DNA of 64,000 bases, taken from IMG/VR virus record IMGVR_UViG_3300044799_000708. One strand, written 5' to 3'. Origin of the DNA: a virus (Duplodnaviria; Heunggongvirae; Uroviricota; Caudoviricetes). This document shows, piece after piece, positions 36,523 to 64,000 of the stretch (position 1 is its first letter; the number at the start of each line of letters is the position of its first letter). The notes under the pieces are model-generated. The model did not search any database. It was not told the origin of the DNA and saw only the letters and a list, made by a program, of their open reading frames with translations. A program made the position numbers and the translations under genes.

Positions 36523-37079
36523 ATTTGCATATCCTCATTTGAAGCCAAATGTTCTTTCTTATAGATAAACATCTTCTTTTTCATTCCCTTCGCATATCTT
36601 ATCGTCTGGGAAGTCCCTCCCTTTACACCTTTATGGTTGAATGCGATAAGAATATCGGAGATTTCAGCGATTATTTTGTTCCTTTCATAGAACCTCTCTG
36701 GTGAAGGTTTTTTCGGGTCTGGGTAGATGATTAGAAATGGAATTCCGTTTTTCTTTGCATATATCTGGGCAAAAGTGTCCACTCCGATTGCGCCACCAGA
36801 TACGATTATGTCCTTTTGCGTGATGTCCAGCCATTCCTTGTTCAGTTTGTCAAGTTTTTCAAGGACTTCCATAAGCCCCCATCCATATCTGTTGCCAACG
36901 ATTCCAATAATCCGAATATTATTTCCTGTTGGTATTCCGATTTTTTTAATAGTTTTCTTCCATGCCTTTACCTTTATATCCCTTGACAGCCTTTCAATCT
37001 GCTTTCTGCTCTCTTGTGTGAAACTCCCAACCGCTAAAGCGTGTGGGCTTCTATTGGACTTTGCCATAGTTGCCTCCAA
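36519..37079 (-). CDS. DprA/Smf-like (SLOG superfamily) Rossmann-fold protein (186 aa)
   Basis: IIGIVGNRYGWG ... IIVSGGAIGVDTFAQIYAKKNGIPFLIIYPD resembles the DprA GxxxGID motif region; overlaps the TnpB 3' end by 29 nt. Confidence 0.35.
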   Translation of the reverse strand: MEATMAKSNRSPHALAVGSFTQESRKQIERLSRDIKVKAWKKTIKKIGIPTGNNIRIIGIVGNRYGWGLMEVLEKLDKLNKEWLDITQKDIIVSGGAIGVDTFAQIYAKKNGIPFLIIYPDPKKPSPERFYERNKIIAEISDILIAFNHKGVKGGTSQTIRYAKGMKKKMFIYKKEHLASNEDMQI

Positions 37080-38169
37080 TAGTTCTGGGCATAATCACAG
37101 ATGCCCCTGAACTTGACATTTCGCCAAGTCCTCGTTTGGCTATGTTTATAGCCCCATTCCTGTCTGCATTGTCCTCGTATCCGCATTTGCATTTGAATAA
37201 TCCTTTATTCCTCTTTCCTGTTTGACCACATTTTGAACAAGTCTTTGATGTATATGCCTCGTTTACCTTTATGACATGTATGCCCTCCCAATTCGCCTTG
37301 TATTCGATATAATTTGATAACTCGGCAAAAGGCATCGTATTGAGTCTGCGATTGAATTTCCTTCCTTTATCACTATTTTTCGTTATTCCTTTTAAGTTTC
37401 CGATTGCAATCACTGAATTGGTCTCTTTTGCCTTATTCACTATTTTTCGGCTAATTTTGTGTAGCTGGTCTTTCACTTTGCGTTTTTCCGTGTTTCCTAT
37501 CCTTTTGATTGTCTTGTTTGCTTTCTTCTCTCCCAATTTCTTCCGCAGATGGAAATAGTGTCCTCTTATTTGTCGAATCTCCCTGCCATAGTATCTGGTC
37601 ATGCCATCGGATAATTGCACCACAGATGCGATTCTCCTGATGCCCAAGTCTATGCCAAGAACATCTTTGTATTCGGTTATCATTTTGATTTCCTTTTCTA
37701 TGGTTATGTGTGCATACCATTCATTGTTTCTTTTTACTATCTTGCTATCACAGAATGTGAAATCCTTCATTTTGTTTTCATAATGTTTGGGTATGTTAAC
37801 TGCGACCCAGAATTGTCTCCTTTGTTTTGTCGGGACTTTGAGCCAGTATTTGAATTTCTTTGTGGGTTGTTTCTCCAATCTTGATACATCATTGCGTAAA
37901 TATAATGGTTGCTCGGTAAGGTTTCTGAATGGTTCTGTTATCATTCGGATAGCCGATGTGACCTGCTGACAATATGTGCTTCCATTCTTGAACCAAGAAT
38001 ATTGTGGCTCTATGTCGTTATTTCTACACTCCTGAACCTGCTGGCATATATTGTTGAAACTATCATATTCCTGTTGGAGTATGGCTTCCTTTATGTTGGT
38101 TAAGCCGACTACTTTTCCCATTAATGATATTTGCTGGTTGGGCTTGGTTCTATTGATGCAAAAGGTCAT
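37051..38169 (-). CDS. tnpB: TnpB-like RNA-guided endonuclease, second and unrelated copy (372 aa)
   Basis: C-terminal zinc ribbon CSKCGQTGKRNKGLFKCKCGYEDNADRNGAINIAKRG (OrfB_Zn_ribbon + RuvC-III); no TnpA. Confidence 0.8.
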   Translation of the reverse strand: MTFCINRTKPNQQISLMGKVVGLTNIKEAILQQEYDSFNNICQQVQECRNNDIEPQYSWFKNGSTYCQQVTSAIRMITEPFRNLTEQPLYLRNDVSRLEKQPTKKFKYWLKVPTKQRRQFWVAVNIPKHYENKMKDFTFCDSKIVKRNNEWYAHITIEKEIKMITEYKDVLGIDLGIRRIASVVQLSDGMTRYYGREIRQIRGHYFHLRKKLGEKKANKTIKRIGNTEKRKVKDQLHKISRKIVNKAKETNSVIAIGNLKGITKNSDKGRKFNRRLNTMPFAELSNYIEYKANWEGIHVIKVNEAYTSKTCSKCGQTGKRNKGLFKCKCGYEDNADRNGAINIAKRGLGEMSSSGASVIMPRTIGGNYGKVQ

Positions 38170-42691: not shown

Positions 42692-43525
42692 TTAACCTCC
42701 CTGTGAAAGATTCAATGGTAATTGAACAAATGGCACTGCATTAGCGTTTCCCGAAAAAAATTGTGGAAGCACGCCATTCCATTTTTGTATTGCCAGCCAT
42801 TTTATGTAATCAGGGCTGTTTCGTAGTTGTGCATTTATTATTTCTATGGATTTCGCCTGACCTTCTGCCTGTGCGATAGCCTGTTGTGCCACTGCTTGAA
42901 TTTCCTTTACCTTATTTTCGGCTTCGAGTGCCTTTTGGACTTGCGTTTGCTTTGATGTTATTGCATTGTTGAAGTCAGGTGGGAACTCGAAATTGGTAAT
43001 GGAAATTGTTTCTACAATTATGCTTCTATTAAGCATCCTTTCTGTCAGTAATGTGTCTATATTCTGCTTTACATTCTCTCTCTTTTGTATCAGTCCTTGT
43101 GCGTCATATTTTGCCGTTACTGATTTTACGACTTCTTGAACCTGCGGTGCAATGACTCTTTCTTGATAGTTTTCGCTCAATTTCTGGTATATTGTATTTA
43201 CATTTGCAGGGTCTATGTGATAGTTGACCGCCACAGTTGTTCTTACATCAAGAAGGTCTAATGATGCTGACTCGCAGGCGACCTCGTATTTTTGTGTTCT
43301 TACTTCCATTGGTCTATAGCTTTCTACGAATGGGGTTATGAAATAAAGACCTTCGTTGAGAATCCTGTCTTCGACAGCACCGAATCGCAATACAACGCCC
43401 CTGTAACCTGCTGGAATTATCGCTATTGTGCTTGCAAGGGTAATTATTATGAACATCAGTAAAATGAACCCTCCTACAAGTCTTGGCAGCGAAAGGTTTC
43501 CTTCTTTGTCAATTAATATTCCCAT
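42692..43525 (-). CDS. SPFH/band-7 (prohibitin/HflC-like) membrane protein (277 aa)
   Basis: N-terminal TM then IPAGYRGVVLRFGAV..ILNEGLYFITPFVESY..MEVRTQKYEV and a long A/Q-rich coiled coil. Confidence 0.8.
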   Translation of the reverse strand: MGILIDKEGNLSLPRLVGGFILLMFIIITLASTIAIIPAGYRGVVLRFGAVEDRILNEGLYFITPFVESYRPMEVRTQKYEVACESASLDLLDVRTTVAVNYHIDPANVNTIYQKLSENYQERVIAPQVQEVVKSVTAKYDAQGLIQKRENVKQNIDTLLTERMLNRSIIVETISITNFEFPPDFNNAITSKQTQVQKALEAENKVKEIQAVAQQAIAQAEGQAKSIEIINAQLRNSPDYIKWLAIQKWNGVLPQFFSGNANAVPFVQLPLNLSQGG

Positions 43526-48737: not shown

Positions 48738-49475
48738 TTACATCAGCCTCCCAAGATTATGCTTCTTTCTGATTTCAGTGAATTCCTTTAGCTTTTCTAT
48801 AAGTTCCAGAACCTTTTCCTTGCTCGGCTCTGGTAATTTATGTCCTTTGCTGTCTGCGCCTATATTGACCCATTTTGGTTTTGCTGTCTTTATTATTTCC
48901 ACCATATCTTTGACATCAAAATCCATTATCGGCTCTACTGTGAGCATAGTTTCGAATCCTGCCTTTCCTATTTTTGCAAGTGACCAAGCCCTTTCAATAA
49001 CATAAGGTGCTTTGCTGATTTTATAGTCCCTGTTGGTTTCGATTGTTGTCCCTATGACTGAATTTTTAGGTAGAAGGTCTTTTACTGCTAATATTCCATT
49101 GGGGTTTTTGCTCTGGAAAAGGTATTTGTTGTCGAATTTCCTGCAGTGTTCCAAAGCTATTTCAATCCATTTTCTGGGTATTTCTTTTGCAAACATATCG
49201 CATGAGCTTCCGACAAAAATGAAATTGCCTTTGCCTAAATCCGTTTTCAGTTCCTGCTCATCAAATTTCAATTCGCCGAGAGGGAATATCTTCATATAGC
49301 AATATTCACAGTCATGTGGGCATCGCCCCTTGATAAAATTCAGCGTGTGCGTTACGAAATCATACATATTGCCTTTCGATTCTCTCATCATATAAATCCT
49401 CCGAATGTTTTTTTGTAGCATTCCTTCTGGAATTTGCATTCTATTCCTTGTCCTCCGACCTCTTTTGGTGAACAC
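48738..49475 (-). CDS. radical SAM enzyme, family unassigned (track 245 aa; probable start at MM 49391, about 217 aa)
   Basis: GRCPHDCEYCY = CxxxCxxC(Y) cluster near N-terminus; GGAGGATTTATATGATG RBS at 49391; the track start is GTG. Confidence 0.6.
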   Translation of the reverse strand: MFTKRGRRTRNRMQIPEGMLQKNIRRIYMMRESKGNMYDFVTHTLNFIKGRCPHDCEYCYMKIFPLGELKFDEQELKTDLGKGNFIFVGSSCDMFAKEIPRKWIEIALEHCRKFDNKYLFQSKNPNGILAVKDLLPKNSVIGTTIETNRDYKISKAPYVIERAWSLAKIGKAGFETMLTVEPIMDFDVKDMVEIIKTAKPKWVNIGADSKGHKLPEPSKEKVLELIEKLKEFTEIRKKHNLGRLM

Positions 49476-51770: not shown

Positions 51771-52358
51771 TTATAATTCCACCTTTGGTGCTATTTCAGC
51801 CCCTTGTCCAGATTCAAAGTATTTTTTGGCATGATAGTCATATATATTCGCTACTATATTTGCTGGAAATACCTGAATCGCAGTATTGAATGGTTTGACC
51901 ACATCATTGTATCTCATTCTTTCAACGGCTATTCTATTTTCTGTTCCTGCCAGTTCATCCATTAGTTTTTGGACTTGGGTATCGGCTTTGAGTTGTGGGT
52001 AATTTTCCATCACAACAATCAGTTTGGATAGAACACTTTCGAGACCATTTGAAGCCTCGACTTTTTCATCAGGTGTTTTTGCATTTCCCCACTGGCTTCT
52101 ATAAAATGTTACATTTTCCAGTAGAGCCTTTTCATATGCCATATATCCCTTTACTGATGCTACGAGATTCGGTATTAGGTCATATCTTCGCTGGTATTGT
52201 GATTCCACTTGCCCCCATTGGTTGTTCACGTTCTGGTCTAATTTTATGAAGTTGTTGTATGTGCCTATGAACCAACTTACCGTTCCCAAGCCGATTATTG
52301 CTATGATAACCACAGCCCAGAACCACTTCTTCAAAAAGAATGGTTGTTCTTCTGCCAT
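51771..52358 (-). CDS. lemA: LemA-family protein (195 aa)
   Basis: N-terminal TM then NNFIKLDQNVNNQWGQVESQYQRRYDLIPNLV...NYPQLKADTQVQKLMDELAGTENRIAVERMRYN..FPANIVA. Confidence 0.8.
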   Translation of the reverse strand: MAEEQPFFLKKWFWAVVIIAIIGLGTVSWFIGTYNNFIKLDQNVNNQWGQVESQYQRRYDLIPNLVASVKGYMAYEKALLENVTFYRSQWGNAKTPDEKVEASNGLESVLSKLIVVMENYPQLKADTQVQKLMDELAGTENRIAVERMRYNDVVKPFNTAIQVFPANIVANIYDYHAKKYFESGQGAEIAPKVEL

Positions 52359-53809
52359 TTTATACCTCCTATTTTTTCAATGTCAATTTGAGAAAGTTTA
52401 TTCTTCGGTGAACAACCTGCTGCCCCCGAACCTGCACAGGCACAAGCGCAGGCGCAAGCTGCTACACATGCACAACTTACACAGGATGGACTTGAATCAT
52501 AACCTCCGCTTTTTCCTGCCCCTCCCGATTCTCCACCACCGAATTTAAATGCCTGAACTGATAAAGCCCCAGTAGCGCATATGTGCGGATAGAATAGCCA
52601 CCAGTAAATTGGAAACCATTCGCCACCCTCATCCCTTTTCTTTTTTTGTTCATCTTCCTGTTCGTTTCGTATCTTTTTTATTTTATCGAACTGTCCTCTG
52701 TCCAGCCATATTCCACTGCAATCATCACAGACTAAAATGCTGGTCGAATCGCCCTTGTATATTTTCGTTACTTTGCTCATAGCCCCTTCGCATCTTGGAC
52801 ATACTCCTCTTCTATATGGTTTAGGTTCTCCAGTCGGTTTTCCAGTAGTGAACATTGATTCGGAAGCATCGTTTTTTATTAGCTTTTCTATTTCTCCCTT
52901 GTCGAAGAATCCACCACCGCATTTATTGCAGATGTCTATCGTAACTTCCTTTACATCTTTTTTTTCCAGCTTTTCATCATCGTTGATGCAATTCATGCTC
53001 AAATGCCTTGTGAAATTGGAATTCCCTCCGATATGGAATGAAGGACTTTCATAATCTCCTCCAGACCCAAGAACTTTAAAGAGAAAAAAGACAATAAACA
53101 TTGCAATAAAGATAAATGGCAAAGCTGATAAAATAGAAAAATAACCCAAATTCTGGCTTATTGGTGATGATGGAACTCCTAACCCTGAATTCGATTGTGC
53201 ATTTTCCATATTAGTAAAAACATTGAGAGGCATTATGACCCCAACAGTTTTCTTTACGCCTCTTCCGACATTATCCCATTCCCAGACCACGCTGTTGTTT
53301 TCATATCTTGTCGGTTCAGAATCGGTCTTCACATCTTTGATTTCTGGAGGCATCCAGACGGCAATGGTCAATTTTTCTGTTTGGGCATTATCCCACCAAG
53401 TCGGTGTAAATTGTATGCTGGCATTCTCTCCGTATTTGTTTACGAAATTTTTCTGGTTTACCTTGAAATTAAACGTGAAGGAATCGCCACTGAAATATGT
53501 TTTGTCCAGTTCGATATAAACCCCCGACCAGCCATAACTGTTTTTCGGGCTTGCTGATATAGCCGACCCTCCATAATTTATTACCTCAAAATCGGAAGTG
53601 GGAAGACCAATCGTGACATAAGGTATGTTCCCTCCAGTGACCCTGAATTTTACATTATATTCTATATAGACATCCCTGTTTGTCTGAACTGTAAGGTCTG
53701 TCCTCTGGCTTTCTATGACATAAGTTCCAGTATCTGCCAAAACTGGTTTTATCAATATGGATATTGCTAAAATGAATATTATGAATAAATATGGAATATT
53801 TGTTTTCAT
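52331..53809 (-). CDS. DUF2207-like secreted/membrane protein with C-terminal zinc-ribbon and Cys/Ala-rich extension (492 aa)
   Basis: Signal peptide, beta-rich ectodomain, central TM (FSILSALPFIFIAMFIVFFLF), then CNKCGGGFFDKGEIEKL and CPRCEGAM..x..CDDCSGIWLDRGQFDKIKKI (zf-TFIIB-like), Gly-rich linker and CVSCACVAACACACACAGS tail. Confidence 0.5.
   Translation of the reverse strand: MKTNIPYLFIIFILAISILIKPVLADTGTYVIESQRTDLTVQTNRDVYIEYNVKFRVTGGNIPYVTIGLPTSDFEVINYGGSAISASPKNSYGWSGVYIELDKTYFSGDSFTFNFKVNQKNFVNKYGENASIQFTPTWWDNAQTEKLTIAVWMPPEIKDVKTDSEPTRYENNSVVWEWDNVGRGVKKTVGVIMPLNVFTNMENAQSNSGLGVPSSPISQNLGYFSILSALPFIFIAMFIVFFLFKVLGSGGDYESPSFHIGGNSNFTRHLSMNCINDDEKLEKKDVKEVTIDICNKCGGGFFDKGEIEKLIKNDASESMFTTGKPTGEPKPYRRGVCPRCEGAMSKVTKIYKGDSTSILVCDDCSGIWLDRGQFDKIKKIRNEQEDEQKKKRDEGGEWFPIYWWLFYPHICATGALSVQAFKFGGGESGGAGKSGGYDSSPSCVSCACVAACACACACAGSGAAGCSPKNKLSQIDIEKIGGIKWQKNNHSF
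52431..52490. repeat. GC-rich (TGY/GCA)n-like microsatellite encoding the Cys-Ala tail
   Basis: cctgcacaggcacaagcgcaggcgcaagctgctacacatgcacaac stands out in an otherwise AT-rich window. Confidence 0.5.
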
Positions 53810-53982
53810 AATTTTTTCACCTTATTACCTTTTCTGAATAATATTCTATTACTGATATTATTCCGAATGTGTAAAGTGTCGAAATCCCAAAAATCATTAG
53901 TGACCAGTTCCACAAAAGTCCTATGAATCCTATTACACCTCCAGTTAATGCCATTATCGCAAACCATATTGATTTATTCATG

Positions 53983-55383
53983 TTATATCACCTTTTTGCA
54001 CATTCTGTTTTCCCTGTCTAAAGGGCAACCACCTTTGCACATATTGAAAAATTCGCATTTCATGCATTCCTCGTTGGCATATTTGTTGTTTCTTATTTTC
54101 TTTGCGATTTTGCCATTCCATATGCTATTCCATGAATCCTCCAATATGTTGCCCAGTTTTTCATGTGTCCATGATTGGCATGGAATGACATCGCCATTCG
54201 GTTCTATCATCATATTTATTTGACAAGCCGAACAGCATCTTTGACCGAACCCCAATTCAATGGGGTTTAATCTTTTGTAACAGCTTGGAAGAAACCAGTT
54301 GAATGTTACTCCTCTTTTTTCTGCATAGCTTTTTCCGTCTGTGAGGGTTTCTTTCAGGATTTCTTCTGACAATCCATCAGTTATTTTTTTCTCTTTGCCT
54401 CTGCCTGAATTGATTATGGCATTGGTAGAAACTATGTTTACGCCGAGTTCCTTTGCCAAATCTATCAAACATCTCAAGTCCTTATAGTTTTTTTTCGTCA
54501 GAGTAGCATTGATGGAAACTACCAAGCCAGCATCAATACAATGATTTATTCCTCTTAATGTTTCCATAAACGCACCTTCTCTGCCTTGCATTTCGTCATG
54601 GACTTTTGATTTGTTTGATTCCAATGTGATTTGTATCCAGTCCAGTTCGGCATCAACGAAATCTTTTGCCATTTTTGCGTTTATCAGCGTTCCATTCGAA
54701 ATTACGCCAGTTACGAATTGTTTTGAATAGGAAATGAGGTCAATCAAATCGCTTCTCATCGTGCATTCCCCACCAGTGAAAACGAGTTGTGGAACGCCCA
54801 CGCTCCATAATTTGTCTATGATTTTTTTCCATTCTGTTTTCGGCAACCTTCCATTTTCATCGGCATTTTTCGGGAGATAGCAATGAGGGCATTTGTTGTC
54901 ACATTCATATGTTAAGGATAAATCCATCCTGTTCGGTGCTTTGACATCATTATCCTTTATTTTTTTCATTCCGACTAAATGGGTCGGGATTTCATTTCTT
55001 GCAAAGCTGTTTATCACTCCGATGATTTGATTCAGGTCTTTTTCCAGTATTTCCACTTTTATTTTTCTATATTTCTTTTTCAATTTGGAAATGGTTTGCT
55101 CAAAGATTTTATTTTGCGGAACTTCATAGCACGAATCGATAAAGGATGATAAGATAAAATTGCTTGTTTTATTCAGATGCAGAACGTAATAACCATTAAT
55201 CCATAGTTTATTTTCATCTGTTTTCAGGTGTATTCTGACCCCATCTAAAGTAACGTGCTTCAAAATATTTCCCTTTTCGCTTATTCCCTTTAATATTTTC
55301 ATACTAATCCCCAATATAATGCCAATCCAATGACAGTTAATGTTGTCATAATACCAGTCACAAATCCATGACCAAACCACCAC
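53983..55383 (-). CDS. radical SAM / SPASM-domain enzyme with N-terminal extension (RiPP-maturase-like); probable start 55302
   Basis: CDNKCPHCY (CxxxCxxC) about 130 aa from the probable start; C-terminal Cys clusters CYKRLNPIELGFGQRCCSACQ..x..ECMKCEFFNMCKGGCP fit a SPASM/twitch domain. Track start is GTG; ATG at 55302 overlaps the stop of the upstream peptide ORF (TATGA). Confidence 0.75.
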   Translation of the reverse strand: MVVWSWICDWYYDNINCHWIGIILGISMKILKGISEKGNILKHVTLDGVRIHLKTDENKLWINGYYVLHLNKTSNFILSSFIDSCYEVPQNKIFEQTISKLKKKYRKIKVEILEKDLNQIIGVINSFARNEIPTHLVGMKKIKDNDVKAPNRMDLSLTYECDNKCPHCYLPKNADENGRLPKTEWKKIIDKLWSVGVPQLVFTGGECTMRSDLIDLISYSKQFVTGVISNGTLINAKMAKDFVDAELDWIQITLESNKSKVHDEMQGREGAFMETLRGINHCIDAGLVVSINATLTKKNYKDLRCLIDLAKELGVNIVSTNAIINSGRGKEKKITDGLSEEILKETLTDGKSYAEKRGVTFNWFLPSCYKRLNPIELGFGQRCCSACQINMMIEPNGDVIPCQSWTHEKLGNILEDSWNSIWNGKIAKKIRNNKYANEECMKCEFFNMCKGGCPLDRENRMCKKVI

Positions 55384-55412
55384 ATTCTTTCGTTGTTTTC
55401 TAACAAAGCCAT
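55299..55412 (-). CDS. 37-aa aromatic/hydrophobic peptide coupled to the rSAM-SPASM gene (candidate precursor or small TM peptide)
   Basis: GGTGAAATC-ATG RBS; MALLENNERMWWFGHGFVTGIMTTLTVIGLALYWGLV; stop TGA overlaps rSAM ATG. Below the track cut-off, translated by hand. Confidence 0.4.
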   Translation of the reverse strand: MALLENNERMWWFGHGFVTGIMTTLTVIGLALYWGLV

Positions 55413-55424
55413 GATTTCACCTTT

Positions 55425-55586
55425 CTATGGAGTTGAAGTATGGGGTTTGATTAGTGGATAAGTCGGAGGATAACCGATTTTTGGTTTAAAATAATCGTAT
55501 TTATCCATATTATTTTTGCATTCACTGCACTTTATTCCCCTTGATTTGCATTTGTTCCTATAGACACAATTCGGTTCATTCATCAT
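55425..55586 (-). CDS. 53-aa Cys-rich peptide (candidate precursor or zinc ribbon)
   Basis: catcatttcacc RBS/MM start; MMNEPNCVYRNKCKSRGIKCSECKNN..; TAG immediately followed by the RBS of the 37-aa ORF. Confidence 0.4.
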   Translation of the reverse strand: MMNEPNCVYRNKCKSRGIKCSECKNNMDKYDYFKPKIGYPPTYPLIKPHTSTP

Positions 55587-55642
55587 TTCACCTTATTTTT
55601 CACATTTATATTTGATGAAATCTTCCTTTTCTCTCAATTTTA

Positions 55643-56032
55643 CTATTTTTCATTTTTTTCAACCTCCATTTTCTTTCCGCACATAGCGCAATATTCATCT
55701 ATTTGTATTTTCCTGCGCCTATCCAGTTTTTTGATTAGCGAACCTATGACATTCATTTTTGTCATATAGCCAAAACCAGAATAGGTATTGTATAGATGAC
55801 CATATTGTTTTTCAAGCATTTTTGCATAGTCTTTTAGCAAAAAGATAGCGTTCTTTATCTCATTTTTTCTGAAAGGTATGCATTCTCCTCTTTTTATCAG
55901 CATCTCATTCTCAAAGCAACTTTTGCATATTGCCTTTTCTACCCCATTTATTTTCTTTAGGGCAAGCCATTTCGTTTCTCCGCATATTTCGCATTTGTCA
56001 ATTGACTTTTTCAACTTCCTTTTTCTTTTCAT
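55643..56032 (-). CDS. zinc-ribbon protein (129 aa)
   Basis: CEICG..x..CKSCF and CAMCG. Confidence 0.5.
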   Translation of the reverse strand: MKRKRKLKKSIDKCEICGETKWLALKKINGVEKAICKSCFENEMLIKRGECIPFRKNEIKNAIFLLKDYAKMLEKQYGHLYNTYSGFGYMTKMNVIGSLIKKLDRRRKIQIDEYCAMCGKKMEVEKNEK

Positions 56033-56035
56033 TTT

Positions 56036-56605
56036 CTACCTTCCTCCTATGTTCTTTTCCCATTTTTTAAATTTCTCCTTCCAATGTTTTTCGCCTGCCT
56101 TCCTCTTCCTTTCTAATTCTCTGTATAATTTTATATTTTGATATTTGTTACCTAATATTTCATTTGTTTCTGGTGACATTCTTTCCTTTTTCCCTGTATT
56201 AATATTTGTTCCGAAATCATGCATAGGGGCGTATGCATAGAGGCTGAATTCTGGTGAACCCCCACCTTCTCTTGTAACTTCCCAAGATGCAAACTTTTTA
56301 TTCCAATACACAACCCCAGTATTTGAAAAATACGCTGTTCCGCAAGAACCACTATCTTGCCATGCTCTTCTTATATTTTTAACTATGTCTCCTTCGAAAA
56401 TCTCCTTGCCATTCTTGTCTTTGAGACCTGCGGATTGCATTAAAATACACTCATCAAAATCTACACCACTTATTGTTGCATGTATTTGCCCATTAATTTT
56501 TTGAAAATTATTTGTTATTCCCAAACAGTTATCTGTCCACCTAATTTCAATAACATCATACATCTTTTTCCATTTCTTATGCCATGCCCTAAATTTTGGT
56601 ATCAT
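56036..56605 (-). CDS. YopX-family phage protein (189 aa)
   Basis: MIPKFRAWHKKWKKMY and ILMQSAGLKDKNGKEIFEGDIV are the two YopX signature blocks. Confidence 0.75.
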   Translation of the reverse strand: MIPKFRAWHKKWKKMYDVIEIRWTDNCLGITNNFQKINGQIHATISGVDFDECILMQSAGLKDKNGKEIFEGDIVKNIRRAWQDSGSCGTAYFSNTGVVYWNKKFASWEVTREGGGSPEFSLYAYAPMHDFGTNINTGKKERMSPETNEILGNKYQNIKLYRELERKRKAGEKHWKEKFKKWEKNIGGR

Positions 56606-57120
56606 TTAATCACATCCTCTTTTAAAATCTTTTTACAACTTTTATATTTTCTTTTACCCCTTCCGTCATACCTTGTCATAGTTCCGTCATCATTCATGCC
56701 GATTACGCAAACTGGTTTCGGTTTTCTCTTTTCTTTTTTTGCATCTTTCTTTTCCATCTCCGAGAACATTATGCCCATAAGGGCAGTCCTTATGTATTGA
56801 TACATGACATAATCTCCGAGTTCCGCTTGGTTTTTTGGCTTGATTTCCCCCTCATCAGTGTTTTTCCAGCTTTCACTAAAACCGAATTTCGTAGGTATGG
56901 TCTTCGTTTTCCAGTGTCTATCTATAAGTTCGATGAAAATCTTCTTTATTTCATCGATTTCCTTTTTGTTAGTTCCATATTTTATGTTAAAGGCTTTCTG
57001 CCAACATTTGTTTGCTATTTCATATTTCGAGCCATCTTTCATTATGCATTCAAATATTTTGGTCATATTTTGCACCATTTCAAAAATTTGATTGTATTTC
57101 CTTCCTCTTCCACCCAACAT
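56602..57120 (-). CDS. hypothetical protein (172 aa)
   Basis: Minus array ORF. Confidence 0.45.
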   Translation of the reverse strand: MLGGRGRKYNQIFEMVQNMTKIFECIMKDGSKYEIANKCWQKAFNIKYGTNKKEIDEIKKIFIELIDRHWKTKTIPTKFGFSESWKNTDEGEIKPKNQAELGDYVMYQYIRTALMGIMFSEMEKKDAKKEKRKPKPVCVIGMNDDGTMTRYDGRGKRKYKSCKKILKEDVIK

Positions 57121-57335
57121 GGTTTGCCTTCGAGTTCCTTGACATCATAGACTTCTGAATTTTGTATAATCTGCAATGCTCTCTTCCCTTCAAATATTTG
57201 TAGACTTCCGACAGATTCATTTATATAAACTGAAAAGAAAAGGCATGGTCTTCCTATGTCACGATTGCCAAATCCAATATCCTTTACTATAGCCATTTTT
57301 TCAGTCATAATTCTTTCACCTCTACGAACATTCAC
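57063..57335 (-). CDS. hypothetical protein (90 aa)
   Basis: Overlaps neighbour by 58 nt. Confidence 0.35.
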   Translation of the reverse strand: MNVRRGERIMTEKMAIVKDIGFGNRDIGRPCLFFSVYINESVGSLQIFEGKRALQIIQNSEVYDVKELEGKPCWVEEEGNTIKFLKWCKI

Positions 57336-57356
57336 ACTGGCATTCTTTTTTTTGTT

Positions 57357-57554
57357 CTAAACATTTTTATCACCTTCAACCATTTTCCTTTTGGTTATTT
57401 CCTGTGCCATATCATTTAACAGCTTATTTTTCGCTTGGAAATCGGCATCTAACCCCCATTCTGTCTCGTCACGCAGTTTGAAATATGCCTTCAAAAAATC
57501 ATTATCTTTTAATTTTTTCAGTTCCTCGAAGGTCTTTTCCGTCATTTTAACCAT
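57357..57554 (-). CDS. hypothetical small protein (65 aa)
   Basis: Minus array ORF. Confidence 0.45.
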   Translation of the reverse strand: MVKMTEKTFEELKKLKDNDFLKAYFKLRDETEWGLDADFQAKNKLLNDMAQEITKRKMVEGDKNV

Positions 57555-57880
57555 TTCCCCATGTAAAAATCTTCTAAAGTCTTTTTATATTTAGGATGTT
57601 CCTTGAATACATCATCTATTACTTTTGCATATATGATTCCAGCAACTATCAAGGCGACCTCATTTATTTTTTTGTTATTGATGTCAATCAAACCACCACA
57701 TTTAGGACAGACCAAAATATAACCCAAATCCTTTCTGTATTTTTCCTTGCCTTTTATTCTGCAACTTATACAAGTTTTCCATCTATATTTACCTTTCATA
57801 TCAATTCCTAAACTGGGCAATACCAATCCCCTCCTGCATCTTTGCAGCGATAGCAAACTATGGTCTGGTTTCCACCACAT
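57542..57880 (-). CDS. zinc-ribbon protein (112 aa)
   Basis: CISCR..x..CPKCGG. Confidence 0.45.
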   Translation of the reverse strand: MWWKPDHSLLSLQRCRRGLVLPSLGIDMKGKYRWKTCISCRIKGKEKYRKDLGYILVCPKCGGLIDINNKKINEVALIVAGIIYAKVIDDVFKEHPKYKKTLEDFYMGKWLK

Positions 57881-58161
57881 TTGCCAAAATCCTCTATTAT
57901 TATTTTTATTTCGATTTCACAGAATGGTTCTCCTCTGAAATCTGGATATATGACGCTTGAATTTGTTGTATAATTTTGAGTCCATCCTGTTGTATTTGGC
58001 ATCCAAGTGGAATTTTTATAAAAATCACATCTATAACACTGCGTGCTTACACATGGTAAGTCTTTATCTACATGACAATATTGCGAACTATAGCCGTAAA
58101 TCGCTCCAAAAACAAATATTATGACTGCTATTGTTATCGGGAATATGTGGTTAATGCTCAT
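57808..58161 (-). CDS. secreted Cys-rich small glycoprotein-like protein (117 aa)
   Basis: Signal-anchor, 10 Cys, sequons NSTWMPNTTGWTQNYTTNSS. Confidence 0.45.
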   Translation of the reverse strand: MSINHIFPITIAVIIFVFGAIYGYSSQYCHVDKDLPCVSTQCYRCDFYKNSTWMPNTTGWTQNYTTNSSVIYPDFRGEPFCEIEIKIIIEDFGKCGGNQTIVCYRCKDAGGDWYCPV

Positions 58162-58176
58162 CTTTTCACCTCGCCT

Positions 58177-58371
58177 TTAACATTTACGCCTTTTTCCCCG
58201 TTCCTCTTCGGCTTTAGTGAGTTTGGCTTCGAGGCTTTGGCGGTCGGCGAACCACGCTTTCAAAACAATTAGTCTTGCCTTCTCTATATGATACTCCTCT
58301 TCTGACATAAAATTTGGTCGCTTTAATTCTTTTTCAAGTCGTTCTATCTCCTTCTCTATCGTGCCTGTCAT
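58177..58371 (-). CDS. coiled-coil small protein starting MTGT (64 aa)
   Basis: Begins with conserved ATGACAGGCACG.. motif. Confidence 0.45.
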   Translation of the reverse strand: MTGTIEKEIERLEKELKRPNFMSEEEYHIEKARLIVLKAWFADRQSLEAKLTKAEEERGKRRKC

Positions 58372-58646
58372 TACTTCAACTCCTTTCCCTTCGGAAATAA
58401 CTTATCGAGTAGTTCCTTTTCATGAAACCTGAATAGATGTTTTTGAATATCCTCACCTTTCATCTCTGGTCTGCTATCGAGTATCTTGCCGCAAAACGGA
58501 CAAGGTTCTCCATTCCCCACAGCTAAATAGTTCATTTCGTAATCTCCTTCCCTACCGTGCCTGTCATCTCTTACCGCCTCCGAGGGCTTTGATTTGACTT
58601 TTGATGTGAGCAATACAACGCCAACCATCAGTCTTACAATTCTCAT
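58371..58646 (-). CDS. composite ORF: 11-aa MTGT upstream ORF (58532..58567) + 54-aa zinc-finger protein (58371..58535)
   Basis: Track ORF reads through; by hand MTGTVGKEITK-stop overlaps ATGAAC start of MNYLAVGNGEPCPFCG..HLFRFH. Confidence 0.35.
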   Translation of the reverse strand: MRIVRLMVGVVLLTSKVKSKPSEAVRDDRHGREGDYEMNYLAVGNGEPCPFCGKILDSRPEMKGEDIQKHLFRFHEKELLDKLFPKGKELK

Positions 58647-58803
58647 GATATTTCAAGAACGCCTCGACTTCTTTCAGGGTTTCGGAGATGGCGATGTCGA
58701 TTTGAGTGCTTATATTGCCTTTCTTGTCTTTGACCCACTCATACAAAATCCTCTCATTCAAAGTCATGTCTTCCAGTTTCTCCTTCCCTGCCGTGCCTGT
58801 CAT
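58564..58803 (-). CDS. hypothetical small protein starting MTGT (79 aa)
   Basis: Same 25-nt 5' motif. Confidence 0.45.
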   Translation of the reverse strand: MTGTAGKEKLEDMTLNERILYEWVKDKKGNISTQIDIAISETLKEVEAFLKYHENCKTDGWRCIAHIKSQIKALGGGKR

Positions 58804-58921
58804 GGTTTCACAATTCCATTAATCGCTTTTTCATAGCAAATTCGATGAGATGGATATAAACGCCTATCTCCATTATATATCGTCTGTATGAACGATACGT
58901 CTTTTCTACAAATTTGACATT

Positions 58922-59716
58922 TCATGCTACTTCACACTCCTTTCCCTTCACTTCAACTTCCATGCGTAAGCCGTCTATGTTCTTGTTCACCCATTTCGTT
59001 TTCTGTTCCTTCAAGTCAACGCCCCTCTTGGCGAAGAAGTCGATTTCTTCCAATAGTTTTCGTCTCACGTTCTCGACTATCTCGAAACAATGTCGATTGA
59101 ACCGCCCTCTACAGAAGTCCAGCTTTTCCTTGTTAGTCCAGATAAAAATGTCTTTCGGATAAGGGTTTTCGTAACTTTCGATTATCCCCCTCGCATCGGC
59201 GGGGGTGAGGGACTTGGCGAGGGCTTCTTTTAACTTCTTTGCCTCTTTTCTATGAAATTCTTTGCAATTAAACAGACGTTCACCTGCATTATATAGTTTT
59301 TTGTTTTTGGCTTCGAGCTTGGAGATTTTACCTAATAATTCCTTTTTCGCTCCTGCACAACCTTCAAAGAAGCCTGAAGCATTTGCCTGTTCACATTTCC
59401 TTTTTGTTTCACCTTCCAGTTGCTTGATTTCACCTTGCATTTCTAATCCGTTTCGCCGAAAATAGTCATTTTCCTCCTTTAATACATTTTTATCATGCTT
59501 GATTTCCTCAATCTGGTCGGCAAGTCCAGTTACTTTCATAAATTCCTCATTATTCATATTGAAAAGCTTGGAGTGGACAGTTTCATTTGAATATCCTTGA
59601 GCCAAAATCCAATTGCATAATCTCTGTCCAAGTCTCAATTTATTTTTAATGTCTTCCTTTGGTGTCATTTTCCCCACAACTCCTTCATCTTTCGTAAAGC
59701 ATCTGGGTCTGACCAT
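58922..59716 (-). CDS. coiled-coil protein (264 aa; probable start at MTPKED)
   Basis: Heptad-rich K/E sequence; a 27-aa ORF ends ATGA-overlapped at MTPKED. Confidence 0.5.
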   Translation of the reverse strand: MVRPRCFTKDEGVVGKMTPKEDIKNKLRLGQRLCNWILAQGYSNETVHSKLFNMNNEEFMKVTGLADQIEEIKHDKNVLKEENDYFRRNGLEMQGEIKQLEGETKRKCEQANASGFFEGCAGAKKELLGKISKLEAKNKKLYNAGERLFNCKEFHRKEAKKLKEALAKSLTPADARGIIESYENPYPKDIFIWTNKEKLDFCRGRFNRHCFEIVENVRRKLLEEIDFFAKRGVDLKEQKTKWVNKNIDGLRMEVEVKGKECEVA

Positions 59717-60045
59717 ATCTCTTTGAGTTTTTTGATGTTTTCAGTCATAAATTCACACCTATTAGCGTTCCTATGAAAGTTCCAATTACTAAAGCACCTA
59801 CTGTAATAAGCCCCCACTTTACTCCCCATTTTACTGTGTCCATAAAACTCTCTTCTTTATTCATTTTTTTGATGTCTTCCTTCATACTTTCACCAACTTT
59901 CTCCTTCCGTTTATTCCGCATTTTCTACAACCCCATCCAAATTCTGGCATTGGCTCATTATTTATGTCGGTTAAATCACCTATTTTCTCTTTGGTTATAT
60001 CTCCGCAATTATCACATTTCCACTTTTTGATGTTTTCCTTTCCTT

Positions 60046-60351
60046 TCATGCTCCACTCCTGTCTTTTCCATTTTCGATTGCAAGTCTATATGCTTCACCT
60101 TTGTCTAAACCCATTCTTGAAAGATGTTTCACCCTGAAATCCAAATTATTATTGAACTTGTCCCAGAATCTCTTGCTATCTAAAGATTCATCTTTGGCTT
60201 CGAGATGCGGATACTTTCTTGATACCCACTTGAAATATAATTTTGCCATCCAGTAAAAAGGAAAGGATATTTCGCTTAATGCCTTCCCTCTGTCTATTAC
60301 CTTTACTTCCCACTTCCAAGTTGTAAAGTCCCAATAAAATAATGTTATCAT
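60046..60351 (-). CDS. hypothetical protein (101 aa)
   Basis: W/F-rich. Confidence 0.45.
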   Translation of the reverse strand: MITLFYWDFTTWKWEVKVIDRGKALSEISFPFYWMAKLYFKWVSRKYPHLEAKDESLDSKRFWDKFNNNLDFRVKHLSRMGLDKGEAYRLAIENGKDRSGA

Positions 60352-60508
60352 CAGCCTTCCCTCCTATCTTTCAGTTCTTTGGCTTCAACTTTCTTCCATA
60401 ATCCGCATTCGCAAGCAAAATATAATGAAGATATGTGCTGTTGTGCAAGGTCATCATAGCGTTCTTCTACGAATTGCCATTTATGTTTATGTTTCATTTC
60501 AAATCACC

Positions 60509-60742
60509 TTAATGATAATAAATCTCGCTATCTTTGAACAACTTTGATACTATGGTTATGTTTTTACATTTTTTACAGGCATATGCCACTCTTATTACTC
60601 TTTTAAAGATTATCCCCTCTTTTTCAATCATTATATTCTCATTAAAATATGTCATTTTCTTTTTACAATGTTTACATTTTATGTCCAGCCACCATGCTTC
60701 ATCAAGCCATTTTTTTCTTGTTTCAAATGAAATATTTATCAT
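60509..60742 (-). CDS. zinc-ribbon protein (77 aa)
   Basis: CKHCKKK..x..CKKCK. Confidence 0.45.
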   Translation of the reverse strand: MINISFETRKKWLDEAWWLDIKCKHCKKKMTYFNENIMIEKEGIIFKRVIRVAYACKKCKNITIVSKLFKDSEIYYH

Positions 60743-60757
60743 TCCTTCCTCCTCCCT

Positions 60758-61171
60758 TCACGGCAAATCACCCAATATAGCCCTTATCCGATTTATTCTA
60801 ATCATTGTATGTTCTTCTGGTCTTTTTTGTTTCTGCTTGCCGTTTGCACCCACATAAAACCAGAGCGCATTTCCAATTATGTTCCAATCTTCTTGCGTAA
60901 GATATTGTGATTTATTTCCATCTGTCATGTTCTCCTCCTCTTCTTCTTCCTTTAGACTTCTCGCAGGAAGGCTTGCGGATTTATTCACAAGAGTTTCGAG
61001 TTTCTTTAATATAGCATATTCCCCATCCGTATCTCTAACTATTACCTTGACCGCCTCCAGCGTTTCGGTTCTTGCATCTTGTTTTCCTGCTTCATATCCG
61101 TTTGAATATCCTTCTGAATAACTGCCTTCCTCTCCTGTCGCATATCTCGGCTCTTTAAGCATTCCAGTCAT
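60758..61171 (-). CDS. hypothetical acidic protein (137 aa)
   Basis: EEEEEEN stretch. Confidence 0.45.
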   Translation of the reverse strand: MTGMLKEPRYATGEEGSYSEGYSNGYEAGKQDARTETLEAVKVIVRDTDGEYAILKKLETLVNKSASLPARSLKEEEEEENMTDGNKSQYLTQEDWNIIGNALWFYVGANGKQKQKRPEEHTMIRINRIRAILGDLP

Positions 61172-61206
61172 ATTAATTTTATCCTCCTACTATATTTTCA
61201 TTTTCA

Positions 61207-61647
61207 TCATAATATATTTGGATATTTTCCATCGATTTCAAGGCAGTGAACTGTCAATAGGAACATTCGAAGGTTCGGGGGGCAGTAAATCACTCGGCTT
61301 CTCTTGCTTTTTGGGTAAATGATAAAACTTTTATTGCAACCGACACATTTTTTCGATATGCAGGTGTGCGTTGGCTGTCTTCTTCCGCAGTTGGGGCATT
61401 CCACTATCACGCTGTTTCCAAGTCTGTTCCAGTATTTTTTTATGGTCTCATGTATTCCCTTTTCCTGTTTTATATTTTTATTATAAAGGTGTTCATCATA
61501 ATTTTTTGCGGTCACGAATTCCTTCTTTTTATTTTTTTCAAGTTCCCTCTCTTCCGCTTTCGCTTCTTCCATCACTTTGTCGAGTTCATCATTCATATTT
61601 ATCATCACTTTTGAAATTGTCGTATTCCTTATATTTTTCATTTCCAA
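61207..61647 (-). CDS. zinc-ribbon protein (146 aa)
   Basis: CPNCG..x..CISKKCVGCN. Confidence 0.45.
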   Translation of the reverse strand: MEMKNIRNTTISKVMINMNDELDKVMEEAKAEERELEKNKKKEFVTAKNYDEHLYNKNIKQEKGIHETIKKYWNRLGNSVIVECPNCGRRQPTHTCISKKCVGCNKSFIIYPKSKRSRVIYCPPNLRMFLLTVHCLEIDGKYPNIL

Positions 61648-61870
61648 TTTCTATATCCAATTTTTTAAGGACATTTTCTGTTGCTTTCAGCCATTCATTT
61701 ATTTCCTCTTCGCAAATTAGTTTCATCTTATAGCTCCTCTCTCTGTATAATCTATAATTTATCCTTTTCAGCATAATGAAGAAAATTTCTCGTAATTCTT
61801 GATACCTAAAATAATTTTCCTTAATCATATCTTTTGTCATTTCCATACTAATCACCCTTATTTTTTTCAA
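61589..61870 (-). CDS. hypothetical protein (93 aa)
   Basis: Overlaps neighbours. Confidence 0.4.
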   Translation of the reverse strand: MKKIRVISMEMTKDMIKENYFRYQELREIFFIMLKRINYRLYRERSYKMKLICEEEINEWLKATENVLKKLDIEIGNEKYKEYDNFKSDDKYE

Positions 61871-62399
61871 TGAATGATATTAGTTTTGAATTTTTATCAT
61901 GTTTTTTCATAGTTTCCTCAATTTTTTTTATACAACAGTCTCGATGTTCTTTGATATGTTCTTTTATGATACTATTGATTATGGGTTCACCACTTGTGTC
62001 TAATTTTAGACCATATGAATTATAGAAACCGCAGTTCTCTCTTTCAAGTATACCAAATTTATACATTTTTTCTAACATATTGTTTGCCCACTGTCTGGAT
62101 ATACCCAAAAAAGAGGCAACATCTTTAGTTTTTATTTTTCTTTTTGCAAAAAACAGAACCCATATACCAAAAAATGTCTTAAAAAATGCGTGTCTTCTCA
62201 AAAAAATCGATATGCCATCACTATTTGATTTTTTAAATGCATCTTTATTCCCAATTTTTTTTGCAATTTCATATAAGTTATTGTAAAGTAGTTCATCTTC
62301 CTTTGTCGTTTTTTCGTTTTCTGTCATTTTCGACACCAGTTCAACTATTTTTAGCTTCCATGACTGGAATTTGTTGCAATTCTTGCATCTTTTCCTCAT
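61848..62399 (-). CDS. putative HTH DNA-binding protein with N-terminal CxxC (183 aa)
   Basis: KTKDVASFLGISRQWANNMLEKMYKFGILERE looks like an HTH. Confidence 0.4.
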   Translation of the reverse strand: MRKRCKNCNKFQSWKLKIVELVSKMTENEKTTKEDELLYNNLYEIAKKIGNKDAFKKSNSDGISIFLRRHAFFKTFFGIWVLFFAKRKIKTKDVASFLGISRQWANNMLEKMYKFGILERENCGFYNSYGLKLDTSGEPIINSIIKEHIKEHRDCCIKKIEETMKKHDKNSKLISFIEKNKGD

Positions 62400-62622
62400 A
62401 CCAGACTAAAATATAGTTGCCGAGCCTTTCGGTCTTGATATTTTCAACAGTTTTAGCCATTTTCTTTACTTTTTGGTAAAAAAGAGGGTGGCAAAAGTTC
62501 AGTTCTGGGTATCTTTTTCTCAAAAGGTGATAAAGACCATAGATGGTAAATTTTTTTCCTTTGTTTTCTTTTAGGAACTGTATGGTTAGTGGGTCGATAA
62601 GAAGAAACTCCTTTTTGGGCAT
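62341..62622 (-). CDS. putative winged-helix protein (93 aa)
   Basis: FTIYGLYHLLRKRYPE..ILVWYEE pattern. Confidence 0.35.
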   Translation of the reverse strand: MPKKEFLLIDPLTIQFLKENKGKKFTIYGLYHLLRKRYPELNFCHPLFYQKVKKMAKTVENIKTERLGNYILVWYEEKMQELQQIPVMEAKNS

Positions 62623-62726
62623 ACTTATAATTGGCTTTGATATTTAAATACTTTAGTTACTCCTTTTATTTTTGGTCTTCACTACCAAGAAGAAAAGAAT
62701 TTAATTTAAAAAACATTAGTCGATGT

Positions 62727-63152
62727 TTATCGGTTTGTCTCATATTTCTGTTCTTTGGAAGTGAGTGGAAGATTTTTCTGCTCGGTATGGTTTATGAAGC
62801 CCTTATTTATCATAACCTTGATTACATAGCCTGTTTCTGCCCTTCGCAGGATTTCTTCTGTAGTTCCAAGTATAACACGCATCAATTGGTCGCCATTTAA
62901 TAAACTTACTTGCCTTTTTTCCAGTTCCTCCTTTGTCTTGAATGAAAGACCGACAAGCATATACCTTCTTATGCTATCTATAGCCATAAAATTTTCTTGT
63001 GTCTGTTCAATCATTTTTTGTTTTTCTTCTTTGAGGTCGCCTAATACCGTTTTATCGCCTTCCAACATACCAGCTTTTGCTCGTTGCTGATATTCCCAGT
63101 TTTTTTCCTTTTTTTCCTTTTCCTTTTCTTCCGCTTTGTCAAAGTGTCCCAT
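62727..63152 (-). CDS. hypothetical protein, first gene of the long minus-strand array (141 aa)
   Basis: ATG lies 20 nt downstream of CTTTTTAAAT (minus strand, 63173..63182). Confidence 0.5.
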   Translation of the reverse strand: MGHFDKAEEKEKEKKEKNWEYQQRAKAGMLEGDKTVLGDLKEEKQKMIEQTQENFMAIDSIRRYMLVGLSFKTKEELEKRQVSLLNGDQLMRVILGTTEEILRRAETGYVIKVMINKGFINHTEQKNLPLTSKEQKYETNR

Positions 63153-63200
63153 AATCTTTTCTTATTTTCAGAATTTAAAAAGACTATAGGCACAATATCT
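63153..63200 (-). promoter_or_regulatory. archaeal-type promoter of the 62727..63152-led operon
   Basis: Minus-strand CTTTTTAAAT-N20-ATG, identical motif and spacing to 20841..20871. Confidence 0.4.
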
Positions 63201-63644
63201 TGGGCTATTGATAAATAAAAACCACAATCCATTGTGCTTCAGTTTTTTGGTAAGCGGTCTTTATTATACCAGTTAACTATATATTAATAGCATCATCGAA
63301 AGTAGCTTGGCTGTGAAATTGGTGATTGCGAAAGACCCGAAAACAGAACCAAATCGGAAAATGGGGGTGCGGATTTCAAGTCCTGTCAAAACCTAAAACC
63401 GAAGAGGTTTTCACCGAAAGTGATATGAAAATAGTCGGGCTTGGTATTTACTCCTCAATCATCAAGAAAAAAAAAGAAAAGTGGTGATAGAGGTAGTATA
63501 AAGTGCTATCAAATTTTATATATATTATAAAAAATATAGTTTATAAGATAGTTATTACAACTACAAGTAGAAGAACAAATAGAAGATAGTGTGGTGTTTT
63601 CTATTTGTGTTCGGTGTGAATGCTACACACTGGTAAAGTAAAGC

Positions 63645-63920
63645 AACGATTCTTGTCAACGATTTCTCCAACAATTGTATGTCAACCGATGCTTGTTCCA
63701 CTGGAAATCCTGTAAACGATTCTTGTCATCTAAACGTGTAAAGTGTTTTGATGAAATCGTGGTGTCAACCGATGTCGTTCATTAATCATATTGTGTCAAG
63801 TGTTAATAATACTTAAGAGTGACAAGTAATCTTGTCAAGTGTTCTTGTAAACAAAACTTGTCAACAAATCATGTAAACATTTCTTGTCAACAGTTCTTGT
63901 AAAGTATTCTTGTCATGTGA
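63645..63920. repeat. iteron-like array of about 15 degenerate TTCTTGTCAAC / CTTGTAAAC / CTTGTCAAG units
   Basis: Read directly: ..attcttgtcaacg..gtcaaccgatg..attcttgtcatc..tcttgtcaagtgttcttgtaaacaaaacttgtcaacaaatcatgtaaacatttcttgtcaacagttcttgtaaagtattcttgtcatg. Confidence 0.6.
63695..63708. promoter_or_regulatory. ORB-like dyad (candidate Orc1/Cdc6 origin recognition box)
   Basis: GTTCCACTGGAAAT is the reverse complement of ATTTCCAGTGGAAC, which contains the archaeal ORB core TCCAGTGGAAA. Confidence 0.35.
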
Positions 63921-64000
63921 TATGATATGTGAATGATGAATGGTTTATTTCCGTTTTTATTTTTTATTTTTCTTATTATATTTTTTTCGTTTTTTCTGTA

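Follow-up and report, generated by a model that had tools for sequence, protein, structure and literature searches.

The stretch of DNA analysed here, hereafter the window, comprises 64,000 nt of the IMG/VR virus record IMGVR_UViG_3300044799_000708 and ends in a region (63153–64000) of 848 nt without a credible open reading frame (ORF). This is the largest gene-free gap in the window, the next measuring 450 nt. From 32588 to 63152 the minus strand carries 73 ORFs and the plus strand carries none; all 73 are directed away from the gap. An earlier note on this DNA, which had proposed a candidate replication origin in the gap, was right about this direction; it had counted about 75 genes (63152 down to 32588). 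From the end of the window inward, the gap consists of A/T-rich DNA (~85–100 nt), an array of short direct repeats, a dyad that resembles an archaeal origin recognition box (ORB), a block of nearly pure A/T, a conserved non-coding block of ~150 nt, and a TATA-like box in front of the first gene. We aligned the upstream regions of the related lineages (the window with contigs L003 and L004, and contigs L005, L006, and L012), and on these alignments the layout is kept across at least three diverged lineages. The region is best read, from its sequence, as the right-hand terminal control region of a linear, virus-like, archaeal-type double-stranded DNA replicon of ~75.9 kb.

The ORB-type dyad, the probable genome terminus, and the repeat array

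The dyad GTTCCACTGGAAAT agrees at 12 of 14 positions with the euryarchaeal ORB consensus GTTCCAGTGGAAAC, and a scan of the window and of the reconstructed 75.9-kb genome recovered it as the sole match with at most two mismatches. Read from the terminus inward its sequence is ATTTCCAGTGGAAC; it lies at 63695..63708, just where the earlier note had placed an archaeal ORB core in reverse orientation. In full, the published consensus is 5'-GTTCCAGTGGAAAC-AAA----GGGGG-3' (PMC1868953); the core of ORB1 of P. furiosus is ATTTCCACTGGAAC, and TTCC and GAA are invariant in both ORBs and mini-ORBs (PMC1904270). Given the base composition, the string TTCCASTGGAA is expected by chance ~0.03 times per 64 kb (~4e-7 per position). 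It has no further copy in the 75.9-kb genome and none in ~180 kb of other related loci. The single ORB that the earlier note saw in the window is also the only one in the replicon: no second or inverted ORB was found anywhere in the 75.9 kb, left end included, and the further inverted copies that the note had suggested looking for are not there.

Comparison with relatives indicates that this element is under conservation. In the strains represented by L003 and L004 the dyad is identical to that of the window. In L006 and L007, whose first-gene protein has 65% identity to that of the window, a perfect 14/14 match to GTTCCAGTGGAAAC occupies the homologous site and has its orientation with respect to the terminus unchanged, within a stretch that is otherwise unalignable with the window. 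In the 567-nt region of L006 such a match has a probability of ~2e-4 if the 11-mer is considered, and a smaller one (an estimated ~1e-5 or less) if the 14-mer is. The equivalent site of L012 is GTTTCC-cgaagca-GGAAC, with the same half-sites and a spacer 4 nt longer, so that the module across lineages can be written as GTTTCC...GGAAC. The dyads of the window and of L006 both contain TTCC and GGAA. Neither GGAAAT of the window nor GGAAAC of L006 is continued by a G-string extension; because all versions of the dyad lack it, the element is of the mini-ORB type. Judged by its sequence, the dyad is a genuine conserved ORB-type element and a predicted Orc1 site.

The position of this element relative to the end of the DNA was examined through the contigs available for the replicon and its relatives. 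The JGI source contig, which carries the gene for the 141-aa protein at the head of the right arm as well as a left-arm protein, is 75,859 nt long. Logan contig L001 is 100% identical to window positions 52727–63973 and stops at 63973, and a second Logan contig continues leftward from window position 1 for another 11,853 nt before it stops. Since 11,853 and 64,000 sum to 75,853, the JGI contig extends at most 6 nt past the window end and the Logan left end together, and there is accordingly nothing to inspect beyond the window. The earlier note had taken the gap for the head of an internal gene array with further DNA beyond 64000, where any initiator gene would lie. This part of its proposal does not hold, as the source contig and all related contigs end here and no orc1/cdc6, primase, or Rep gene is found in the whole genome.

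The same end recurs in independent assemblies. All eight contigs with a homologue of the 141-aa protein, which represent four lineages at 56–100% protein identity and one of which (L002) is only 1.4 kb long, stop 220–850 nt upstream of its gene. L006 (Logan) and L007 (JGI), although produced by different assemblers, stop at the same final nucleotide. At the left end, L017, a third assembly from a different strain, starts within ~25 aligned nt of the same position, and the first left-end gene lies at position 157 in L017 and likewise in L010. In L012 (Logan ERR12814455_319227), positions 1–23 are the Illumina TruSeq adapter TCAGACGTGTGCTCTTCCGATCT, which runs straight into CCCCCCGACAAACCG; the terminus so marked is a run of six C residues amid an A/T-rich context. 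Such a junction points to repeated read-through at one fixed physical DNA end. It lies ~100 nt past the repeat array of L012, and the window ends 84 nt past its own array.

Comparison of the two ends with each other (the last ≤6 nt of each end lying outside the sequence compared) revealed no significant inverted or direct terminal repeat, and no stable fold that would indicate a terminal hairpin was found at the ends. Inverted or direct terminal repeats and hairpin telomeres were accordingly rejected for the assembled ends, and no polymerase or Rep gene, as protein-primed ends would need, was found. A similarity of 11–18 nt between the right end of L012 and the left end of L010 (p ~0.013, uncorrected) was judged too weak to count. 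The assemblies make it probable that the genome is linear with unique ends and that position 64000 is no more than ~10 nt from one of its physical ends.

The array between this end and the A/T block consists of 14 copies of a TGTMA(A/T) core, all on the plus strand (63644–63917; TTGTMA repeats), with start-to-start spacings of 26, 31, 13, 13, 26, 31, and 39 nt followed by six spacings of 13 nt. Tandem Repeats Finder (TRF) reports a 13-bp/26-bp array at 63828–63915, autocorrelation gives sharp peaks at lags 13, 26, and 39, and the density of TTGT[AC]A in the array is 6–7 per 300 nt against a window mean of 0.36. Within the tandem part, TGTCAA and TGTAAA cores alternate and so produce a 26-bp super-period, and an inverted copy (TTGTCAC, minus strand, 63819–63825) makes up a small palindrome together with the first of the tandem units. 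The repeats that the earlier note had described as about 15 degenerate copies (63645..63920) are therefore real and more regular than it supposed, at a count of 14.

Classical iterons are direct repeats of ~17–22 bp in helical phase, with an adjacent rep gene. The array, which the earlier note had called an iteron array, does not belong to this class: with a core of 9–11 bp and a period of 12–13 bp the units are too short and too closely spaced, and no Rep family, as an iteron-type origin would need, was found among the ORFs of the genome. Nor are the 13-bp units mini-ORBs by the published criterion, because they lack TTCC and GAA (PMC1904270).

The repeats are confined to the right end, where they start ~85 nt from the terminus, and they are lineage-specific. 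The window, L003, and L004 share TTGTMAAC units with a 13-bp period, and L012 has instead ~10 copies of ACMTGACA with a 12-bp period (autocorrelation 0.54 at lag 12; core TGACA/TTACA). At the array position of L006 and L007 (28–88) there are two clusters of GACGAT/GATGAC (GAYGAY) hexamers, TCGTCA on the opposite strand, and it is 27 nt past these clusters that both assemblies come to their shared final nucleotide. Because 12–13 bp does not correspond to a whole number of helical turns, a protein that occupied one unit after another would follow a spiral path around the DNA. As the units vary by lineage while the dyad stays, the binder of the units is likelier to be encoded by the element, and that of the dyad a conserved host factor.

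Other features of the region and gene content of the replicon

The features of the terminal region are collected in Table 1. The near-pure A/T block, which the earlier note had given as 63510..63560, was recovered with almost the same limits; only two other places in the 75.9 kb have a 50-nt window with an A+T content of at least 92%. L006, L005, and L012 likewise have A/T-rich stretches at this point of the layout, immediately upstream of the conserved block.

Table 1 Features of the right-hand terminal region, listed from the contig end inward (window coordinates)
Feature	Position	Strand	Basis or reading
Terminal A/T-rich stretch, right contig end	63918..64000	.	Coincidence of contig ends; probably ~10 nt from physical end
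Seven tandem 13-bp units (nnTTCTTGTMAAS)	63827..63917	+	TRF, repeat families D1 and D2, spacing
Seven dispersed cores, same orientation, spacings 26, 31, 13, 13, 26, 31 nt	63644..63826	+	
ORB-type (mini-ORB) dyad GTTCCACTGGAAAT	63695..63708	.	Consensus match and conservation in relatives
A/T block, >=92% A/T	63507..63560	-	Possible unwinding element, TATA-type promoter toward the genes, or both
Conserved non-coding block	63290..63445	-	Alignments; possible small RNA or leader
TATA-like box CTTTTTAAATT	63172..63182	-	20–30 nt upstream of first-gene ATG
First right-arm gene, 141 aa	62727..63152	-	Conserved marker of the terminus; candidate DNA-binding protein
183-aa protein, candidate second repeat binder	61848..62399	-	Sub-threshold winged helix-turn-helix (HTH) matches

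The ~150-nt non-coding block is common to all four lineages and is better conserved than its surroundings. A coding function was rejected, since no frame is open in all lineages. The block matches no Rfam family at the gathering or a relaxed threshold and contains no tRNA. Tests for a stable structured RNA were negative, with folding z-scores of 0.4 to -1.8 against shuffled sequences and 16 weak pairs in RNAalifold; a small hairpin, CAC-TTTYG-GTG, has one compensatory change. The block also contains what appears as an exchangeable cassette: the 54 nt at 63351–63404 of the window are replaced in L003 by a completely different segment of 48 nt, between flanks that are 97–99.5% identical, and the L003 version is a 92% match to the distant L006. 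Contig L002 breaks inside this cassette.

The first gene has no Shine-Dalgarno motif, which suggests a leaderless mRNA of archaeal type. Among genes preceded by a gap, TATA-like boxes are centred 21–30 nt upstream of the start codon (8 of 10 hits) and a Shine-Dalgarno motif is absent in several cases; internal genes have GGTGAT-type motifs at -9 to -15. Thus, as far as motifs and spacings can tell, the expression signals look archaeal.

Two products of the adjoining right arm are candidate element-encoded repeat binders, on weak support. The 141-aa protein falls into five homologue clusters (56–100% identity), and its homologue is the first gene inside the contig end in every relative. Its AlphaFold2 model (mean predicted local distance difference test score, pLDDT, 71) combines a long helix with a small helical domain at the C-terminus, possibly a winged helix; Foldseek searches with it returned non-significant matches (E >=0.85), several of them to winged-helix domains. 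The 183-aa protein matches HTH_Crp_2, Fe_dep_repress, MarR, and TrmB in Pfam with E-values of 0.002–0.04, all below the gathering scores.

The window has ~147 ORFs and the 75.9 kb ~170, most of them shorter than 150 aa and without a known family. Recognisable products are two TnpB proteins, HNH and LAGLIDADG endonucleases, radical-SAM, YopX, LemA, and Band-7 proteins, a TFIIB-type zinc-ribbon protein, a DprA/SLOG-like protein, a beta-helix protein, and an intein-bearing DUF2201 protein. Searches of the 147 window ORFs and the left-arm genes gave no family match to Orc1/Cdc6, MCM, primase, polymerase, helicase, or Rep, and no terminase, portal, capsid, or partition ATPase (par) gene was detected in the 75.9 kb. 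With no replication genes found, host factors must be recruited.

Several genes bear on the identity of the host and on the relatives of the element. The two TnpB proteins are of the IS200/605 type (OrfB_IS605 and Cas12f1-like TNB; 1189–2412 on the plus strand and 37051–38169 on the minus strand). Among GTDB representatives the first is closest to a metagenome-assembled genome (MAG) of Ca. Aenigmatarchaeota, at 56% identity, followed by MAGs of Bipolaricaulia and Bacteroidetes. This affinity is weak evidence for an archaeal host, and on sequence grounds the host of the replicon appears to be an archaeon. Host-like accessory genes, all on the minus strand, stand within the array of small genes (42692–43525, 51771–52358, 53983–55383, and 48738–49475) and encode a Band-7/SPFH protein, LemA, a radical-SAM/SPASM enzyme, and a DUF5131 or radical-SAM-like protein; a match to a TPM-domain protein also falls within the window.

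A protein of 546 aa (4598–6238, minus strand) forms a conserved pair with one of 520 aa (3039–4601, minus strand). The former combines a signal peptide with an all-beta, propeller-like ectodomain and also has a PPxPPxPP linker and membrane helices at the C-terminus; it is a possible surface or virion membrane protein. It has 12 metagenomic homologue clusters, down to 30% identity, and no sequence relatives in IMG/VR, GenBank phages, or the PDB. As a membrane-anchored, beta-propeller-like protein it is uninformative about replication or packaging. Contig L018 (ENA ERZ27256843 k141_4556974, 65,623 nt) encodes a homologue with 49% identity in the same gene order and ends ~1.3 kb beyond its DUF2201 gene; possibly this contig represents an almost complete genome of the family. 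The DUF2201 (VWA-like/metallopeptidase) protein of the left arm (L010 2531–4978) contains an intein that bears a LAGLIDADG homing endonuclease. In L017 (1254–3305 and 3509–7090) there are two inteins in the DUF2201 protein and one in the neighbouring homologue of a 366-aa protein, and the DUF2201 protein of L018 (403 aa) has no intein domain.

Scans of IMG/VR with the exact repeat, the 141-aa and 183-aa proteins, the conserved-block pattern, and the 546-aa family recovered no relatives, and the GenBank phage and virus collection gave no DNA or protein match. A DNA-pattern scan of metagenome contigs gave one chance match, in a histidine-kinase gene (L008). By these searches the element family looks new, with nearly all of its ~170 genes lacking known relatives.

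Candidate origin function and rival explanations

We tentatively interpret the region as a subterminal replication origin combined with an end-maintenance region, in which host Orc1/Cdc6 would be used; both the binding and the origin function are predictions. Host Orc1/Cdc6 would bind the single mini-ORB and load MCM at the neighbouring A/T block, and a fork would then travel leftward through the right arm, co-directional with its 73 genes and with a second block of minus-strand genes. Such a leftward fork would leave about three quarters of the genes co-oriented with replication. A protein encoded by the element, for which the 141-aa product of the first gene and the 183-aa winged-HTH-like protein are candidates, would coat the phased array. 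This coat could mark or protect the nearby DNA end, and it may also assist initiation or stabilise weak binding of Orc1. The earlier proposal of a replication origin is thus partly supported: the ORB is conserved and the expression signals look archaeal, whereas neither a second ORB, nor an initiator gene, nor an informative skew was found, and the position is terminal rather than internal.

A number of observations weigh against this interpretation. Archaeal origins normally have several ORBs, inverted around the unwinding element, and here there is one ORB-type site only, its dyad without the G-string extension. A lone mini-ORB is bound weakly by Pyrococcus Cdc6 and is not bound in vivo (PMC1904270). 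In L012 the half-sites are 4 nt further apart, and canonical Orc1 binding may be intolerant of such a spacer. Further, 135 nt separate the A/T block from the dyad, and a promoter would account for the block equally well; the host Orc1, too, may not recognise this type of ORB. The mechanism gives no account of the completion of the 5' ends and of the ~300 nt beyond the putative origin. Linearity itself rests on assemblies rather than reads, and the adapter junction could stem from duplicates of the polymerase chain reaction. Nor does base composition help: GC skew, a check that the earlier note had proposed, is ~+0.22 on blocks of plus-strand genes and ~-0.22 on blocks of minus-strand genes. 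As it mirrors the coding strand, the test is uninformative about an origin and speaks neither for nor against one.

The bolder proposition that the replicon represents an undescribed family of linear archaeal viruses or elements of 65–76 kb, without replication proteins and equipped with a subterminal origin whose single canonical ORB captures host Orc1/Cdc6, a telomere-like coated array, and a small RNA with an exchangeable cassette of ~50 nt, is speculative and, taken as a whole, rather unlikely.

Among the rival explanations, the one that survives best is that the region is a recognition or packaging signal of the genome end, similar to cos or pac, in which the repeats would bind a packaging or end-processing protein, the dyad would be the site of a dimeric regulator encoded by the element, and the origin would lie elsewhere. 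Unique-sequence ends are typical of cos-type genomes, many cohesive ends are G/C-rich, and cosB is the binding platform for the small terminase of lambda. The contig ends and the adapter junction do place a genome end here, as assemblies rather than reads indicate, and this end has a defined unique sequence without inverted or direct terminal repeat; the repeats occur at the right end only and start ~85 nt from it, and the L012 terminus (CCCCCC) is G/C-rich in an A/T-rich context. We nevertheless regard a packaging signal as unlikely, as no terminase, portal, or capsid gene is detectable, the largest conserved proteins are membrane-anchored and beta-propeller-like rather than packaging enzymes, and it would be strange for the site of an unrelated regulator to agree exactly, in a relative, with the ORB consensus.

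Another possibility is that the region controls early transcription only, the A/T block and TATA-like box being promoters of the conserved non-coding RNA and of the right-arm operon, and the repeats and dyad the operators of the adjacent HTH-like regulators. This would accommodate the TATA-like boxes at archaeal spacing, the conserved, transcribed-looking block directly downstream of the A/T block, the winged-HTH-like gene two genes in, and the orientation of all 73 right-arm genes. The array, on the other hand, is situated 490–765 nt upstream of the first ATG and 85–410 nt upstream of the A/T block, its 14 phased sites far exceed typical operators, and neither the terminal position nor the identity of the ORB would be explained. 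We therefore consider transcriptional control alone quite unlikely.

It is improbable that the genome is instead circular or concatemeric, in which case the 848 nt and the 156-nt left leader would together form an internal intergenic region of ~1 kb, the classical position of an origin. The gene orientation would suit this arrangement, as the left arm runs rightward from nt 157 and the right arm leftward and the joined ends would be divergent, and both L003 and L004 are interrupted within the tandem array, so repeats can indeed break assemblies. Assemblers with different k-mer sizes, however, stop within 6–27 nt at both ends, two of them at the same nucleotide; there is no end overlap or terminal redundancy, and the adapter junction falls at the equivalent point in L012. 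Lastly, a type II/III partition centromere of the tubC/TubR or parC/ParR kind, with a small adaptor coating the repeats into a filament segregated by a motor, is very improbable: tandem direct repeats of 12–13 bp in one orientation beside small putative DNA-binding genes do resemble tubC and parC, but searches of Pfam and PHROG revealed no NTPase of the ParA, ParM, or TubZ type. The only 'GTP-binding' match in PHROG (phrog_289), considered for a TubZ-type system and rejected, is the DprA/SLOG-like protein of 186 aa (36519–37079).

Known systems and significance

The subterminal origin that we tentatively propose has its closest counterparts in the ORBs and mini-ORBs of euryarchaeal-type oriC (Pyrococcus, Haloferax, and oriC1 of Sulfolobus), with which it shares the dyad core including TTCC and GAA, a nearby A/T stretch, and a non-coding setting. 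It differs in its single copy, in the absence of a G-string, and in having no adjacent orc1/cdc6; further, oriC belongs to a circular chromosome, whereas this dyad belongs to a linear mobile element, ~300 nt away from its terminus. In the origin of Methanothermobacter thermautotrophicus, as summarised in PMC1904270, multiple 13-bp mini-ORBs are bound cooperatively by Cdc6-1. The two have in common a cluster of many short direct repeats of ~13 bp at a putative origin, for which a cooperative coat is envisaged. The units described here (TTCTTGTMAAC), in contrast, lack TTCC and GAA, their 13 bp is a period and not the length of an element, and they change by lineage while the true ORB dyad stays.

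Other parallels concern the terminal position and the geometry of the repeats. AFV1, a linear lipothrixvirus of a hyperthermophilic crenarchaeal host that Bettstetter et al. are said to have described in 2003, reportedly has a G/C run at the extreme end and clustered, TTGTT-like, telomere-like repeats over several hundred bp, at both of its ends. The C6 run at the end of L012 and the TTGTMA repeats are similar to what is reported for AFV1, although here they are found at the right end only, and the phage and virus collection revealed no relationship to it in sequence or gene content. The cos region of lambda (cosN-cosB) likewise has unique ends and one-sided protein-binding repeats within a few hundred bp; the present replicon differs from it in having no terminase, no demonstrated cohesive ends, and an apparently archaeal host. 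In tubC (TubZRC) and parC (ParMRC), with direct repeats of 12 bp and 11 bp, respectively, a small adaptor encoded by an adjacent gene spirals around the DNA. The geometry of the repeats is alike, but here there is no gene for a motor NTPase and the location is terminal.

The region described here bears on the start of replication in archaeal viruses and plasmids that lack replication genes of their own, and on the upkeep of ends in linear elements without terminal repeats, hairpins, or terminal proteins. It offers a compact, testable system for both, with a canonical ORB, an A/T block, and a phased array all reported within 350 nt of a DNA end and in a conserved layout. With its ORB and its subterminal place in a new linear element of archaeal type, it is a credible but unproven region of replication or end maintenance. 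If the Orc1 of the host does bind the dyad, the site would provide a handle on the identity of that host, and it would represent a mobile element that copies the origin code of a chromosome.

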